Source of the DNA: Escherichia phage Av-05
Strand: one strand, 5' to 3'
Sequence record: KM190144
DNA length: 64,000 bases
In this document: one piece after another, positions 1 through 7,240 of the stretch
Layout of the letters: the number at the start of each line of letters is the position of its first letter
How positions within the stretch are numbered: the first letter of the stretch is position 1
Notes under the pieces: generated by a model
What the model saw: the letters and a program-made list of their open reading frames with translations, nothing else
Database searches by the model: none
What the model was told of the DNA's origin: nothing
Program-made: the position numbers and the translations under genes

Positions 1-300
1 CATGCAGATCAGACTATATCTTGTGTGTTATTACACACCCCCCTGTTTCGGCGGTTGATAATCAACCGGAGGTTTCCCTCACCGCTTGGCCCTAACGCCC
101 GTAAGCGATAGTCGTTGAACGTTCATCCCATAGGGATGCTTCGCTGCGGATTGTCTAAACATTCACACTGTTACTATACTCAACGTCATTACCGTTGACC
201 ATAAATATGTTACCATACCTACTTAGTGGTGATATGTATAAAGAGTTACCCGTCAATTAAAGGGGTTTATAGAGAGCACACGGTTCTACCCTCATCGAAA
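1..300 (-). mobile_element. Group I self-splicing intron (5' part; continues beyond window start) interrupting the terminase large-subunit gene
   Basis: Minus-strand reading gives the four conserved group I core elements in canonical order P-Q-R-S: P-like AATTGACGGG (plus 249-258), Q-like AATCCGCAGC (143-152), R-like GTTCAACGACTA (109-120), S-like AAGATATAGTC (12-22). Region is non-coding and the terminase ORF stops at 267. Boundaries approximate. Confidence 0.6.
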
Positions 301-1397
301 CCTATAAAGGTATACTGCAAACCCTGATGATCTAATTTGTTATTCTCATACTCCATGTGTCTCCACAACACCTTTGCCCCAGATGGGAAAATTGCTTCCA
401 GAGCTTTCTCCCTGAACTTCGGTTTCCATTCCTTATCAAGTTGCAAATAAATACTTTTCGCTGTATCAAAAAGTCCACCTGCACCTGTCAATTGAGGTGT
501 TGTCCTACGAAACATTATACATGCTGTCTGCGGGTCATCGACATAAGCAAGCGGCATCAATTGTAGGAGATATGATTTTCCACTATTCCCAGTGACAACT
601 ACACAATCTTCTAGTCTGGTAACAAAGAAACCTGTTTGTGTTACAAAGCAGTATTTAAACCCATCCGTAGGTATAAACTCTTTAAACTCAACTTTCTCTT
701 TATCGTTTAATGCTCTTAATGACTCGCCATTAACGTTTACATTAACAATGTACTCTGAGCCAATCTTCTTCAAAGAAGACTCATAATCGAAGCAGGAAAC
801 AACAAACTGGATAAAATCAGCAGTGGATTTGTTACTGGAAGAATACATACCGCCTTGTGCGATAATGGTATCCATGATTACATCAAGTTGATGCCTTGAG
901 CAGTTATAATAGTTCTCTGTTATCTCACCACACAACACTCGCTCTCTGATTGTTTCATCATCTAAGTCCAAACCTGCACCAGAATAATTGAATGTTGTGA
1001 TAAATTTTCCTTCCCAACCACCGCTGGAATTTTTATGTGTCTCCGCAATTTCCGAAAATGGTTGCGTTTTTGGTGGAGTATGGTAATCTTCTTTAAATAG
1101 GACAGTGTGTTCGTCAGATAACTCTTGACAAATACCATTACCTTCTATTCTTGTAAGTTTTTCGCAAGGGAGTTTAACAAACTCTAAAGGAGGGATAAAT
1201 TTAGCCTCCCCTGTGGCTTTATCATATTGCAGAATGTCCTGCCCTGACCATTCTGCTATCTTAATCCAGCCAGATGGTGTCAACACCTCGTGGTCTTTAG
1301 ACAAACACCCGGCGGCCCCGCCAATTATTAGAATTTGGGCTTTACTCTCCAAAATCATTTTTTGTTTAGGACTGGCAGGTCCAAATACTTTACTCAA
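267..1397 (-). CDS. Terminase large subunit, N-terminal ATPase exon, with intein in the Walker A loop; TTG start
   Basis: ORF track; N-terminus MSKVFGPASPKQKMILESKAQILIIGGAAG then, after the insert, SGKSYLL, which reconstitutes the P-loop GAAGSGKS typical of terminase ATPases; FIGFDEG Walker-B-like; GGAGG RBS; C-terminal nuclease domain absent and presumably in a downstream exon beyond the intron. Confidence 0.7.
   Translation of the reverse strand: MSKVFGPASPKQKMILESKAQILIIGGAAGCLSKDHEVLTPSGWIKIAEWSGQDILQYDKATGEAKFIPPLEFVKLPCEKLTRIEGNGICQELSDEHTVLFKEDYHTPPKTQPFSEIAETHKNSSGGWEGKFITTFNYSGAGLDLDDETIRERVLCGEITENYYNCSRHQLDVIMDTIIAQGGMYSSSNKSTADFIQFVVSCFDYESSLKKIGSEYIVNVNVNGESLRALNDKEKVEFKEFIPTDGFKYCFVTQTGFFVTRLEDCVVVTGNSGKSYLLQLMPLAYVDDPQTACIMFRRTTPQLTGAGGLFDTAKSIYLQLDKEWKPKFREKALEAIFPSGAKVLWRHMEYENNKLDHQGLQYTFIGFDEGRTVCSL
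585..1307 (-). mobile_element. Intein (about 241 aa) inserted in terminase P-loop
   Basis: Insert begins Cys-Leu-Ser-Lys-Asp-His-Glu-Val (block A-like CLxxDxxV), ends ...VVVTGN followed by Ser (C-terminal Asn plus nucleophile); flanks rejoin to a perfect Walker A. Penultimate His is absent, so atypical. Confidence 0.55.
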
Positions 1398-1446
1398 AAG
1401 ACCTCCATATTTTCTATTCCTACCATAGAAGGTAGTTTACCACGAA

Positions 1447-1492: not shown

Positions 1493-1786
1493 CTATTTGT
1501 CTGAAGAAAATATTGTCTTTACATACTGCTGCAACGTTCTTAATTTCATGCGATCTTCAGCAGCATTAATGTTGTTTTTCTTGATCACCTCGATGGCATC
1601 TGCGTTGCTGAGACCACGAGGCAATTTTTCAGGTTCTTTCGGTGGTATCATAGCTTCAGCGGGTGGTCTTGCTAAAAGATCGCTTATCACAACTTCTTTT
1701 GCAACAGGAACAACTCTCTCAGGTGGTGAAGTGCACCCTGTTAACATAAACAATAGAAAAGGAACCATGATAACATACTTTTTCAT
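1493..1786 (-). CDS. o-spanin (outer-membrane lipoprotein, Rz1-like)
   Basis: Signal peptide with lipobox LTGC, Pro-rich mature region, start overlaps stop of upstream i-spanin. Confidence 0.6.
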   Translation of the reverse strand: MKKYVIMVPFLLFMLTGCTSPPERVVPVAKEVVISDLLARPPAEAMIPPKEPEKLPRGLSNADAIEVIKKNNINAAEDRMKLRTLQQYVKTIFSSDK

Positions 1787-2184
1787 TTAGACCCCAAACT
1801 GTCGTTATAGATATCAACAAACTGGTTATCGAGGCAAACCTGTTTTCCTGCTTGTGTCTTGCTATAGCTTTTAATCTTTTTGTCAAGATTTTCTTTCAAT
1901 TGATTGTTGATTTCCCTCTCTTGCACTAACATGGTTGACAATTCATCTATCTTATCCTGCTGTTGCTTTTTAAAAGCGTTATTATGATCCCGAACTTGCT
2001 GGTTAATCCTCTCCCATTTAAGATCAGTGTCGCTGACACCTGCGTTGTACGACGATGTTAACTGGTCATTATACCAATGTTTTATCCCCAAGATACCACA
2101 GACGAGAACCACACCACACAAAACAACACCTATCTGTTTTATGTTCTTAGAAAAGAAAGTTAACAGCGTTTTAAACCATATCAT
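1783..2184 (-). CDS. i-spanin (Rz-like, N-terminal TM plus coiled coil)
   Basis: N-terminal hydrophobic segment IGVVLCGVVLVCGILGI, charged helical remainder; ATGA overlap with upstream gene. Confidence 0.6.
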   Translation of the reverse strand: MIWFKTLLTFFSKNIKQIGVVLCGVVLVCGILGIKHWYNDQLTSSYNAGVSDTDLKWERINQQVRDHNNAFKKQQQDKIDELSTMLVQEREINNQLKENLDKKIKSYSKTQAGKQVCLDNQFVDIYNDSLGSK

Positions 2185-3741: not shown

Positions 3742-3817
3742 TGGTTGCGAGTATTGGGATCGAACCAATCTGGACTGGCTTATGAGACCAGCGAAGTCAC
3801 CAGACTTCAAACTCGCA
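3742..3817 (-). tRNA. tRNA-Met (anticodon CAU), CCA encoded
   Basis: Manual cloverleaf: acceptor TGCGAGT/ACTCGCA, anticodon loop CTCATAA, T-loop TTCGATC. Confidence 0.75.
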
Positions 3818-3821
3818 ATGT

Positions 3822-4052
3822 TCATTTATTACCAAGAGAAATCCTTCTAGGTGGATGACCAAAATGGATCTCATAAGAACCATCAAGTCTTCCTTTCTTT
3901 GTCCGGCAATACTTATCTACTTTCTTGTAGTCCTTCACCTCTTGAGTAGTATACCTAGAATCGGCAATAAGTAGAATAAGAGGCCACCCAACACAAAATT
4001 TTCTAACTGTCTCTATTTTTTGGATATATGCACTCTTCAATTTTCTTCGCAT
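3822..4052 (-). CDS. Small basic hypothetical protein (76 aa) between tRNA genes
   Basis: ORF track only. Confidence 0.3.
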   Translation of the reverse strand: MRRKLKSAYIQKIETVRKFCVGWPLILLIADSRYTTQEVKDYKKVDKYCRTKKGRLDGSYEIHFGHPPRRISLGNK

Positions 4053-4067
4053 GATCTATTTCCTGTT

Positions 4068-4143
4068 TGGTGTGACGGACAGGATTCGAACCTGTGACCA
4101 CCTAGTCTTCAGCAAGGCACTCTACCAACTGAGTTACCGTCAC
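4068..4143 (-). tRNA. tRNA-Phe (GAA), CCA encoded
   Basis: Acceptor GTGACGG/CCGTCAC, D-arm ACTC..GAGT, anticodon loop CTGAAGA, T-loop TTCGAAT. Confidence 0.8.
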
Positions 4144-4148
4144 ATGAT

Positions 4149-4225
4149 TGGTAGGCGATGAGGGACTCGAACCCCCAAAATTCAGGTTCTAAGCCTGACA
4201 TGTATACCAATTCCATCAATCGCCC
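4149..4225 (-). tRNA. tRNA with anticodon UAG (Leu codon family) but class I (short variable loop) architecture
   Basis: Acceptor GGGCGAT/ATCGCCT, anticodon stem TCAGG/CCTGA, loop CTTAGAA, 5-nt variable loop, T-loop TTCGAGT, discriminator A, CCA encoded. Confidence 0.6.
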
Positions 4226-4239
4226 ATCTATATTAACAG

Positions 4240-4431
4240 TTACGGTTTTCCGCGATACACAGAAATAGTTTTTCCATTGGCATTGATCACGTAGGCGGTC
4301 TGATCCTCAGACAAAAATACTTTTTGATCAACGCCGGAAATAGCTATAGACTTTTGATGAGCGCAATACCCAACAATTTTGCCACAAAAAATTTGTTCAT
4401 CATTTGGGGAGACTACTTTAACTGTTAACAT
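4240..4431 (-). CDS. Small hypothetical protein (about 64 aa)
   Basis: ORF track trimmed to internal ATG preceded by GAGGA; upstream part of track ORF overlaps tRNA-Pro. Confidence 0.3.
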   Translation of the reverse strand: MLTVKVVSPNDEQIFCGKIVGYCAHQKSIAISGVDQKVFLSEDQTAYVINANGKTISVYRGKP

Positions 4432-4473
4432 GGTATCCTCTGTACATTTCTGTTTTGATATGTATATGTTTGT

Positions 4474-4551
4474 TGGTCTGTCCGGTTGGATTTGAACCAA
4501 CGACCTGATCATCCCAAGTGACCCGCGCTACCCAAGCTGCGCTACGGACAG
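4474..4551 (-). tRNA. tRNA-Pro (UGG), CCA encoded
   Basis: Acceptor CTGTCCG/CGGACAG, D-stem GCGC, anticodon loop CTTGGGA, T-loop TTCAAAT. Confidence 0.8.
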
Positions 4552-4635
4552 AGAGATGTAGATTTTAATTGTCCCAGAATCTACAAACTGGTATCGCTGG
4601 CTAGGTGATATCTGTGACTTGATTAAGTCAAGAAT

Positions 4636-4726
4636 TGGCGGTTCCTGAAGGATTCGAACCTTCGGTGGGGAGATTCCTCCCAACGGCTTAACAGGCCGTC
4701 ACCATCGACCACTCGGTCAAAGAACC
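4636..4726 (-). tRNA. Class II (long variable arm) tRNA with anticodon GUU (Asn codons); identity ambiguous
   Basis: Acceptor GGTTCTT/AGGAACC, Ser-like D-arm ACC-GAGTGGTCGAT-GGT, anticodon stem ACGGC/GCCGT with loop CTGTTAA, 19-nt variable arm TGGGAGGAATCTCCCCACC, T-loop TTCGAAT, discriminator G, CCA encoded. Confidence 0.55.
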
Positions 4727-4735
4727 AGAATATTT

Positions 4736-4812
4736 TGGTGGATCTGGTTAGATTCGAACTAACAATCCCTCGATTAAAAGTCAAGTGCCTTAAACCATTT
4801 GGCTACAGATCC
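4736..4812 (-). tRNA. tRNA-Lys (UUU), CCA encoded
   Basis: Acceptor GGATCTG/CAGATCC, anticodon loop CTTTTAA, T-loop TTCGAAT. Confidence 0.8.
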
Positions 4813-5034
4813 TTTAAATTATCTTTAAAATAGCTAATTACTCGCACATAATTAGCTATACGCAACAGCCCTCTAGGGAGGGCACACTAATGATAGATTA
4901 CGATTACATGACCATCATGAGTGTTTGACTTACGCCAGTAAAGAGCGGACTGCTCTGGGGTATCGGTAAGATGGTTGCAGCCATCCACCGAAAAATCACA
5001 CCAAGCAACTAAACAAGCTACATTAAAGATAACT

Positions 5035-5123
5035 TGGAGGAGGCTGACAGAATCGAACTGTCACCATATCTCTACAGCGGGACTGGGTTCAAACCAGCTT
5101 GTGCACCATGCACCCCAGCCTCC
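5035..5123 (-). tRNA. tRNA-Ser (UGA), class II, CCA encoded
   Basis: Acceptor GGAGGCT/AGCCTCC, anticodon stem GCTGG/CCAGT loop TTTGAAC, long variable arm, T-loop TTCGATT. Confidence 0.65.
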
Positions 5124-5201
5124 AAAAATAGCCTCTGCCGAGAAGATACACCCAACAAAGACGGCGCTCAGGTCCGAAGAAATCTGAGCCTTGACATACA
5201 G

Positions 5202-5295
5202 TGGAGGAAGATGCCAGACTTGAACTGGCACACCCATTTCTGGGTTACTATCTCCTTAGCAGGGAGACCCCTTACCAAATTAGGGTTAATCTTCC
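5202..5295 (-). tRNA. tRNA-Ser (GCU), class II, CCA encoded
   Basis: Acceptor GGAAGAT/ATCTTCC, anticodon stem TCTCC/GGAGA loop CTGCTAA, long variable arm, T-loop TTCAAGT. Confidence 0.7.
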
Positions 5296-5316
5296 AATAC
5301 CTTAGTAATTAAAAAC

Positions 5317-5406
5317 TGGTGGAGAAGGAGAGAATCGAACTCTCAAGCCGTTTTACCAGTCAGCACATTTCCAATGTGGTTTCGTCGCCAATCGATTTGC
5401 TTCTCC
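5317..5406 (-). tRNA. tRNA-Ser (GGA) candidate, class II, CCA encoded
   Basis: Acceptor GGAGAAG/CTTCTCC, T-arm GAGAG-TTCGATT-CTCTC, anticodon loop TTGGAAA with one mismatch in stem; D-arm irregular. Confidence 0.5.
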
Positions 5407-5415
5407 GTTTTAACT

Positions 5416-5491
5416 TGGCAGGGGATGGTTGATTCGAACAACCGATCACGGGGTCAAAGCCCGTTGCATTAGGCCACTATGCTAATCCCCT
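5416..5491 (-). tRNA. tRNA-Gln (UUG), CCA encoded
   Basis: Acceptor AGGGGAT/ATCCCCT, D-stem GCAT/ATGC, anticodon stem ACGGG/CCCGT loop CTTTGAC, T-loop TTCGAAT. Confidence 0.8.
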
Positions 5492-5492
5492 T

Positions 5493-5574
5493 TGGCACGA
5501 GAGTGAGGAATCGAACCCCTTAGTCACTGGTTTTGGAGGCCAGCCTTCACCCAGTGAAGTTACGCTACTCTCAT
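5493..5574 (-). tRNA. tRNA-Trp (CCA) candidate with atypical, extended D-arm region
   Basis: Anticodon loop CTCCAAA followed by ACC as in E. coli tRNA-Trp; T-loop TTCGATT; acceptor ATGAGAG/CTCTCGT; 79 nt before CCA. Confidence 0.5.
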
Positions 5575-5597
5575 TAAAAACTATTTTCGGAATGGGT

Positions 5598-6140
5598 TTA
5601 TATATAAAACGCCAACATCACTCTTTCTCTTGAGAAAGCTCGGTCTTCAGGAACAACACTCTTCAGTTTCCAACCAACATAAATTCGCCAGTAAAATTGT
5701 TTTCCAAACAGTCTGAAAGACGGGACAAACGCGAATAAACCCCACGCATTGTCATTCCACATCAGCAAGTAGCCTTGTTGATTATCCTCCACATCAGAGC
5801 TTACATGGATGTTTCCTTTCCACTTTGTCACAGATGTAATTTCACGCCCAAGTGCGTGATAGGAGAAATTGTAGGCTTTATTTCTCCACAACCAAGCAAC
5901 TCGTTGCAGATAAACACCAAAACTCCCTATCTTGCGAACTTCTGCCCATCTCTCTATGTGTCCTTTATCACCATCTATAGGATTATCATATGTTTCCATC
6001 CACCTGAAAATATAAGGTAGATGCCCTGTCTTCTCATTATAGAACGGAACAACAAAAGGAGCCAGAATAACACAGAGAACCGACATAACTGGGTCAAGAG
6101 GTGCTAACAGAATCCACGATAAATATTTCAAGTATCTCAT
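5598..6140 (-). CDS. Hypothetical protein (180 aa, hydrophobic N-terminus) embedded in tRNA cluster
   Basis: ORF track; no recognisable motif. Confidence 0.45.
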   Translation of the reverse strand: MRYLKYLSWILLAPLDPVMSVLCVILAPFVVPFYNEKTGHLPYIFRWMETYDNPIDGDKGHIERWAEVRKIGSFGVYLQRVAWLWRNKAYNFSYHALGREITSVTKWKGNIHVSSDVEDNQQGYLLMWNDNAWGLFAFVPSFRLFGKQFYWRIYVGWKLKSVVPEDRAFSRERVMLAFYI

Positions 6141-6367
6141 GCAGGATCAAGCCTAGATATAATGTACTGGTTTAAATCTGAATATGGGAAGATACTTTCA
6201 AAGATAACCTGTTTAAATCTGAAACCGCACAAACCGAAAAGTACCTTCTGACACTCCCCAAAAGAACAATCTTTACCAACTTTTATCACAACCGTATCGG
6301 CAACCTGCACACTTTCTATCTCTTTAGGTTCATGATGCCGTACTATGATTACTTTAGAAACCATCAT
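6137..6367 (-). CDS. Hypothetical protein (76 aa)
   Basis: ORF track; 4-nt overlap with downstream ORF suggests coupling. Confidence 0.4.
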   Translation of the reverse strand: MMVSKVIIVRHHEPKEIESVQVADTVVIKVGKDCSFGECQKVLFGLCGFRFKQVIFESIFPYSDLNQYIISRLDPA

Positions 6368-6492
6368 ACTCGTCCGTATTAAAGCCTTCTACTAAAGATA
6401 GAAGATGTCTAGGGTTGGACCGCAAACTCAACCCCATGGAATTTGTTACGGTCTTCAGTTGACCCAAGCGGATTTCATTGACATCTTTTAGA

Positions 6493-6567
6493 TGGAGCAT
6501 CCAGAGGGTATCGAACCCTCGACTTCAGCTTGGAAGGCTGTAGTTTTCCCAATTAAACTATGGATGC
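6493..6567 (-). tRNA. tRNA-Gly (UCC), CCA encoded
   Basis: Acceptor GCATCCA/TGGATGC, D-stem GTTT/AAAC, anticodon loop CTTCCAA, T-loop TTCGATA. Confidence 0.75.
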
Positions 6568-6572
6568 ATATT

Positions 6573-6648
6573 TGGTGGGAGTGGTAGGCTCTGCCCCTAC
6601 GTCCTCTCGATTATCGGTCGAGCGATCTACTAACTGATCTACACTCCC
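6573..6648 (-). tRNA. tRNA-Ile (GAU)-like gene with non-canonical T-loop and C33
   Basis: Acceptor GGGAGTG/CACTCCC, D-arm GATC-AGTTAGTA-GATC, perfect anticodon stem CTCGA/TCGAG with loop CCGATAA, T-arm GTAGG-GGCAGAG-CCTAC lacks TTCGA, CCA encoded. Confidence 0.45.
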
Positions 6649-6716
6649 AAACTGTACTGGCCCAACAACCACGATTGGAGGGTATCGTCACACATCAAAG
6701 CCAGTACAGATTTAGT

Positions 6717-6806
6717 TGGTGTGCCGTGATAGAGTCGAACTACCCGAGTCCCTTTCGAGACAGGAGATTTACAGTCTCCCCCGCTACCCCTACGGTCTAA
6801 CGACAC
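6717..6806 (-). tRNA. tRNA-Tyr (GUA), class II, CCA encoded
   Basis: Acceptor GTGTCGT/ACGGCAC, anticodon stem GGAGA/TCTCC loop CTGTAAA, long variable arm, T-loop TTCGACT. Confidence 0.75.
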
Positions 6807-6807
6807 A

Positions 6808-7155
6808 TTAACCTTGTTTGAATTGAACAATATCCGTCGAGAACGGTTTAGCTGCCTTAATGGGAGCTTTTTCTGAGTTATCTTTTTCGAGTAACTCTTC
6901 GTTTTCCTCATCAAAGTAATCAGAAAGCATCTGCTCACCTTTCTCAATAACATAGCGAGCAATATTTTCTCTGATATTGTCTTTTGTATTCACATTCTTC
7001 ATCAAATCCCTAAGAACCTGATGAGCTTCAGGAATCATTGCAATCAGATTCGTTTTCAAATCTAGGATATTTTTCTCTAACTGAATTGCATTAGATTCCT
7101 CTTTCAGAGGACGACCTTTTCCTCTTCTACGTTTTGTAAGCTGCTTAGTAGCCAT
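6808..7155 (-). CDS. Hypothetical basic protein (about 116 aa; MATKQLTKRRRGKGRPLKE...)
   Basis: ORF track trimmed to ATG at 7155 downstream of a consensus promoter; the longer track ORF overlaps tRNA genes. Confidence 0.45.
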   Translation of the reverse strand: MATKQLTKRRRGKGRPLKEESNAIQLEKNILDLKTNLIAMIPEAHQVLRDLMKNVNTKDNIRENIARYVIEKGEQMLSDYFDEENEELLEKDNSEKAPIKAAKPFSTDIVQFKQG

Positions 7156-7174
7156 TTTAAAACCCCACTTAATG

Positions 7175-7203
7175 ATATTATCAAATAAAAACATATCTGT
7201 CAA
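7175..7203 (-). promoter_or_regulatory. Sigma70-like promoter (TTGACA-17-TAATAT)
   Basis: Minus strand -35 TTGACA at plus 7198-7203, 17-nt spacer, -10 TAATAT at plus 7175-7180. Confidence 0.6.
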
Positions 7204-7240
7204 GTGGTATTTTAACATATTTACCAAGAAATTGAAAGTT

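Follow-up and report, generated by a model that had tools for sequence, protein, structure and literature searches.

An ORF-less group I intron is predicted at 287..1 on the minus strand of the window (the whole stretch of 64,000 nucleotides from Escherichia phage Av-05 that was analysed), interrupting the gene of the large terminase subunit (TerL) directly after the Gly codon that follows the Asp-Glu of Walker B, and the probability of this reading was put at about 93%. The phage was assigned as Avunavirus-like (Vequintavirinae, rV5-like), with E. coli as the host. It had been proposed in a preliminary description of this DNA that the large-terminase gene holds a group I intron, and the proposal was supported by an Rfam match, by helices with compensatory changes, by an intron of phage rV5 at the same codon and by a sibling metagenome contig (L013), in which the reading frame is restored exactly.

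The core elements P, Q, R and S were found in the canonical order on the minus strand, as described earlier, each with 1 occurrence in the 64-kb window (Table 1). P4 and P7 pair fully through P with Q and R with S, respectively, and the combined R...S pattern gave 1 match in the window vs 0.00 expected, none of 100 shuffles containing a match. By covariance-model search, RF00028 (Intron_gpI) was matched at 339..1 (-) with 49.4 bits (E = 9.3e-12 in a 400-nt search and 1.5e-9 in a search of the whole window); this sole group I match in the window spans model positions 1-242 of 253 and was flagged as cut at the 3' end. The score lies 0.6 bit below the Rfam gathering score of 50, and RF00028 was listed in the E-value mode. 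Its absence from the list of the gathering-threshold Rfam scan of the window is explained by the window edge, which cuts off the 3' end of the intron, and by nothing else.

The 5' splice site was placed at 288|287 (GAU GAG GGU|AGA..., after the GFDEG of Walker B), that is after a U, because the window remains homologous to the intron-less allele of phage 18-1-2 up to the Gly codon and no further; this codon is GGU in the window and GGA in 18-1-2, and the homology reaches window position 289. The in-frame stop reported for ORF 267..1397 (-) was found as TAA at 269..267, but exon 1 does not extend to it, as had been supposed: by homology to the intron-less allele, its actual end lies 18 nt upstream, at 288. 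In P1, GAGGGU (293..288) pairs with GCUCUC (277..272), and 7/7 pairs are standard over the full helix (293..287 with 278..272), the pair beside the splice site alternating between A-U and U-A among the seven homologues compared. The alternative placement of P1 by Rfam at 339-316, in which the P1 given here is treated as an insertion, was rejected: the intron-less allele is still homologous as far as 289, and the Rfam alignment of rV5 itself uses GAGGGU/GCUCUC.

Table 1. Features of the TerL gene, of the predicted intron and of the intron sites in related TerL genes (window positions unless a contig is named; U stands for T in RNA strands)
Feature	Position (strand)	Sequence or extent	Remarks
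TerL exon 1	288..1397 (-)		TTG start preceded by GGAGG; ends ...GFDEG (GGU), Walker B
Predicted intein	585..1307 (-)	241 aa (ORF aa 31-271)	within Walker A; part of exon 1, outside the intron
Predicted group I intron	1..287 (-)	first 287 nt of ~350	RF00028; window edge falls inside the P9 5' strand
P1 5' strand	287..293 (-)	GAGGGU|A	U288 is the last exon base; U288.G277 wobble
Internal guide sequence	272..281 (-)		UGCUCUC (278..272) is the P1 3' strand; GUGU (281..278), possible P10
In-frame stop	267..269 (-)	TAA	inside the intron J1/3 region; final six codons RTVCSL* intronic
P3 5' strand	260..265 (-)	CCCCUU	pairs with 44..39; 3/6 pairs changed on both sides among homologues
P element	258..249 (-)	AATTGACGGG	contains P4 5' strand 255..249, bulged A253
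J4/5, P5 and long P5 extension	153..248 (-)	~95 nt	internal pairing predicted by MFE only
Q element	152..143 (-)	AATCCGCAGC	contains P4 3' strand 150..145
P6a hairpin	124..138 (-)	CAUCCC-UAU-GGGAUG	homologue alignment
R element	120..109 (-)	GTTCAACGACTA	contains P7 5' strand GACUA 113..109
P7.1 and branched P7.2	50..107 (-)	P7.1 107..96; P7.2 92..50	between P7 and P3'; helix assignments predicted
P7.2 hairpin, GAAA tetraloop	80..69 (-)		
P7.2 hairpin	67..53 (-)	GGUUGA-UUA-UCAACC	
P3 3' strand	39..44 (-)	AGGGGG	pseudoknot with P7
P8 hairpin	23..38 (-)	GUGUGU-AAUA-ACACAC, 16 nt	no ORF
S element	22..12 (-)	AAGATATAGTC	contains P7 3' strand UAGUC 16..12
P9 5' strand	1..7 (-)	CUGCAUG	partner CAUGCAG beyond the window
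Intron site A		after DHQG	33 nt upstream of the window's site; 18-1-2, L007, L014
Intron site B		after FDEG	the window's site
Intron site C	L001 5030-6030; L002 4630-5650	SATI|FDNP	with HNH gene; rV5, 18-1-2
Intron site D	L013 6685-6961	after RKDD	near the gene 3' end; ORF-less, 72 bits

The ORF at 1397..267 (-) comprises 376 codons, with Pfam Terminase_6N at aa 272-369. Exon 1 had been taken for the N-terminal domain of the ATPase; a part of the ATPase is encoded indeed, but it is only the portion from Walker A to Walker B together with a 241-aa intein, so that about 129 mature residues are coded for and the exon breaks off inside the ATPase domain, at no domain boundary. The nearest sequenced phages were 18-1-2, 19-1-2, 24-2-1 and vB_EcoM_TH18 (Escherichia; Avunavirus, Vequintavirinae), with about 97% identity in the flanking exon, and the coding sequence of 18-1-2 is uninterrupted at the site of the window (...LQYTFIGFDEG-TQFTWSQIDYL...).

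The sibling contig L013 (OVXI01000004.1) was obtained by a metagenome scan with a 25-nt P7.2 module. It is 98% identical to window 1400..1 over all 1400 nt, with an identical gene architecture, and its intron is complete (5330..5679, 350 nt; RF00028 68.7 bits, E 7.2e-17). The 3' end of the intron and exon 2 had been stated to lie outside the window, which holds: judged from L013, about 63 nt of the intron are missing, namely the second P9 strand, P9.1/9.2 and the terminal G. The exon 2 frame anticipated beyond the window edge is present in L013, where the intron end ...AAAAAACG is followed by ACACAATTCACATGG, coding for TQFTW..., and in both L013 (98%) and another sibling, L014 (99%), the intron ends with ...AAACG and exon 2 begins with ACACAATTC, the window itself stopping short of its own intron 3' end. 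In the phage of the window, about 63 intron bases (GGUGACAUGCAG..., final G) would be expected past position 1, and then the same exon 2 start (TQFTWSQIDYL) in frame. After removal of the intron, of a second, 3' intron and of the intein from L013, a TerL of 499 aa was obtained that aligns gap-free, at 86% identity, with the uninterrupted TerL P0020 (499 aa), and by this alignment the boundaries of intron and intein are fixed to the residue.

Searches for exact patterns gave no match for a 50-nt intron pattern in IMG/VR or for a 25-nt exon/intron junction pattern in the JGI metagenomes, the latter owing to a single-base difference of the siblings in the P1 loop. No relatives of the TerL exon-1 peptide were retrieved from IMG/VR, and no record was returned by exact-protein look-ups of the window TerL ORF and the neighbouring 97-aa ORF.

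For the folding of P1-P9, proposed earlier, an unconstrained minimum free energy (MFE) fold of 293..1 was computed, by which P1, P3, P4, P5, P6 and P8 were recovered (z = -2.70), P7 being scored as a pseudoknot separately from this fold. Pairing was counted in P1, P3, P4, P6a, P7, P9 and P9.2 over seven introns at the same site (window, L013, L014, rV5, L008, L009 without its ORF and the partial L007). Standard pairs made up 97.7% of the cells, and 10 pairs were changed on both sides; the observed values were reached by 0/500 shuffles, and slid partners gave 41-48%. An earlier MAFFT alignment that included distant introns, with P8 and P3' misaligned, was left out of these counts. The sequence of P8 differs in each lineage and yet forms a hairpin every time, and a complete P9 hairpin, with two compensatory pairs, is present in L013, L014, rV5, L008 and L009. 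Peripheral elements vary: only a minimal P5 hairpin is present in L008 where the window has the P5 extension, and the hairpin 67..53 is swapped for AGUCU-UUU-AGACU in the DNA-polymerase intron of phage 19-1-2. No P2 helix was evident between P1 and P3. The 64 nt from the end of R (109) to the start of P3' (44) fold as P7.1 plus a branched P7.2. In the Michel-Westhof scheme, extra helices P7.1/P7.2 at this place, after the 5' strand of P7 and before the 3' strand of P3, are the typical layout of subgroup IA, to which the window intron would belong by the placement of these energy-predicted helices.

Splicing is predicted to proceed by the standard group I chemistry. The exon end GAGGGU would pair with the guide GCUCUC to form P1, with the U288.G277 wobble marking the 5' splice site; a free guanosine held in P7 would attack after U288, and the freed exon would then attack after the terminal G of the intron, about 63 nt past the window. 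GUGU (281..278), which could pair with the ACAC at the start of exon 2 as P10, would probably position exon 2 for this step, and ligation would restore ...GFDEG-TQFTWSQIDYL... in a continuous TerL frame, while unspliced RNA would yield a truncated product ending with RTVCSL*. Since TerL is essential, the intron would have to splice in any viable phage. Relatives at the same site have a homing-endonuclease gene in P8 and this intron has none, so that the most fitting reading is of a mobile intron family with the window copy as a member that lacks the endonuclease.

A different account of the same sequence would be a group I intron that has decayed and lost its splicing, with the terminase translated as two separate fragments that assemble afterwards, as is reported for the mobE-split NrdA of Aeromonas phage Aeh1. 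There is precedent for such a state, non-splicing interruptions in phages being cited in PMC7344957 for CB7_245 and for the NrdA of Aeh1; a lack of an endonuclease gene and of an obvious P2 would also fit decay. However, all core helices of the element are intact, with 97.7% pairing and compensatory changes, and among the four differences between the introns of the window and L013 (aligned rows read by eye), three fall in the hairpin loops of P1, P6a and P7.2b and the fourth, at the closing pair of P8, leaves a G-C in the window. With the intron excised precisely, TerL is free of gaps, and exon 2 of L013, starting with ACACAATTC, has no start codon: its first in-frame ATG stands 24 codons downstream (ORF 5752), so that a separately translated fragment would lose conserved residues. 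Decay was accordingly considered very improbable by us.

Still far less credit was given to a chance match, or to a structured RNA other than an intron, such as an intergenic regulatory element 3' of a naturally short terminase-like gene. The Rfam score of the window just below the curated threshold could be taken in its favour, but the E-value over the whole window is 1.5e-9, homologous introns occur at the same codon in rV5, LL12, L008, L009, L013 and L014, and the ORF halts at Walker B, partway through the ATPase domain, while the siblings resume TerL directly after the element. This explanation is effectively refuted by the score of L013, the gap-free spliced TerL and the pairing statistics.

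The element has known relatives. Intron 1 of the rV5 TerL gene (ORF64A/B; DQ832317) lies at the identical site (GAU GAG GGU|UAAUUUGUAGCUCUC...) with an identical P1 and guide (GAGGGU/GCUCUC), and it resembles the window intron in the helix order, in having no ORF and in the subfamily of its phage, Vequintavirinae. It measures 319 nt, scores 84.9 bits with RF00028 and is 73.7% identical to the 5' 170 nt of the window intron. The window intron differs from it in length (about 350 nt), in the bulged A of P4, in compensatory changes in P1 and P3, in a wholly different P8 sequence and in a much larger, branched P7.2, and the window TerL carries an intein whereas the GGAAGSGKS of the rV5 TerL is unbroken. 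The terminase CDS of rV5 is a three-piece join in GenBank, and the rV5 genome paper (Kropinski et al. 2013) treats the matter under the heading 'Introns in terminase' and acknowledges D. Shub for the definition of the intron (PMC3606486). The LL12 terminase is annotated as an 'intron-containing gene'. In phage JES2013 and in the metagenome contig L009, the site and the core are the same as in the window, but the P8 loop holds a homing-endonuclease-type ORF in place of the 16-nt hairpin; the ORF of JES2013 is annotated as 'putative recombinase endonuclease' and that of L009 matches Pfam Endonuclease_7. The window intron is thus homologous to the rV5 intron published in 2013 at the same site, and it is a typical phage group I intron and an ordinary find.

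More distant comparisons were drawn as well. The td, nrdB and sunY introns of phage T4, of subgroup IA2, likewise interrupt conserved catalytic motifs of essential enzymes and carry P7.1/P7.2 extensions, with or without endonuclease ORFs; they possess a P2 helix, and their genes differ from TerL. In an unrelated siphovirus of a Gram-positive host, a self-splicing intron is also described in the large-terminase gene. Nearer to the window phage, an HNH-bearing TerL intron of Pectobacterium phage CB7 (Certrevirus, Vequintavirinae) splices by RT-PCR (PMC7344957). This intron is of the group I type and comes from the same subfamily, but it bears an HNH gene, which the window intron does not. Its counterpart in rV5 and 18-1-2 is probably the intron at the downstream site C, and the RT-PCR on CB7 speaks for the subfamily only, neither for the window intron nor for its site.

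In the TerL genes of the relatives, at least four group I intron sites (A to D in Table 1) and one intein site (Walker A) were recognized. The intron at site A is 245 nt long in the sibling contigs L007 (1873-2371) and L014 (6608-7173 (-)), which are 97-99% identical, and in both of them introns A and B occur together, separated by a micro-exon of 33 nt (LQYTFIGFDEG). P1 of intron B must be formed with this micro-exon, as must, presumably, P10 of intron A. Within the visible part of the window gene only intron B is present, the upstream intron A being missing (window 304-327 compared). The 5' half of the window intron is closest to the rV5 TerL intron, and a 27-nt stretch of P7.2 (TAGGGCCAAGCGGTGAGGGAAACCTCC, window 66..92 (-)) is identical to a part of the DNA-polymerase intron of 18-1-2 and 19-1-2 (L006 1222-1250). 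The window intron looks chimeric, and the combination of an rV5-like 5' half with a P7.2 stretch of a polymerase intron may reflect an exchange of modules between introns; if true, chimerism would suggest that introns of one genome have recombined with each other. A wider reading, in which the window represents a single allele at a hot spot of mobile elements that is unusually crowded, with a chimeric intron and an uncurated intein family, is put forward tentatively. Phages of 97-99% identity that differ in the introns of one and the same gene could serve for a small case study on the dynamics of homing and on splicing with a micro-exon.

The intein in exon 1 makes up about two thirds of the ORF (241/376 residues) and was absent from the preliminary description. 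It divides Walker A (GGAAG|CLSKDH...VVVTGN|SGKS in the window vs GGAAGSGKS in rV5), and in an alignment of 32 sequences C1, H67, C220 (the block-F Cys), G240 and N241 were invariant; a penultimate His is absent, an invariant Gly standing there in all 32. No Pfam or NCBIfam intein model was matched at E <= 1, and the intein was not recognised by a sequence search of the PDB. The AlphaFold2 model (pLDDT 96.2, pTM 0.91) gave as its top Foldseek match in the PDB the AceL NrdHF intein (6zgq, E 1.5e-8); VMA and PI-SceI inteins and hedgehog Hint came next, the top matches all being inteins or Hint domains. The insert of 241 aa is thus identified as an intein by its placement in the motif, its Cys1, Asn end and +1 Ser, the modelled Hint fold and the gap-free TerL after its removal. 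Inteins in the P-loop of terminases, and phage inteins lacking the penultimate His, are documented (PMC5050341). The 32 homologues include the RecA-like protein P0102 and another P-loop protein, P0078, and relatives such as 18-1-2 have an intein with an additional domain in its centre (LRLQVAVMADGRVVKEG...), which makes it longer by about 80 aa. The family, marked by Cys1, the block-F Cys and a TGN end, is widespread and is recognised by no curated profile.

The main practical value of these results is correct annotation, current understanding being unchanged by the finding. TerL should be annotated as a joined CDS plus an intein; otherwise it will be called a truncated 'hypothetical/terminase' fragment of 376 aa. 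In the records of 18-1-2 and 19-1-2 (OK136180 and OK181858, the contigs L001 and L006, respectively), terminase and DNA polymerase are given as separate CDS fragments with the introns and the intein unmarked. The gene also provides one further case of self-splicing elements in Walker A and Walker B of an essential phage enzyme, a pattern that is well documented.

Two observations were made on the neighbouring genes. Just upstream of the terminase gene, at 1493..2184 (-), two small genes overlap as a lysis-type pair, the one coding for 133 aa with an N-terminal hydrophobic segment and the other for 97 aa with a lipoprotein-like LTGC motif; the pair looks like an i-spanin and an o-spanin, and the equivalent gene of LL12 is annotated as O-spanin. 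Farther along, 12 tRNA genes are clustered at 3747..9659 (-), together with a weaker tRNA-like match at 3747-3816, a tRNA cluster being typical of rV5-like phages.
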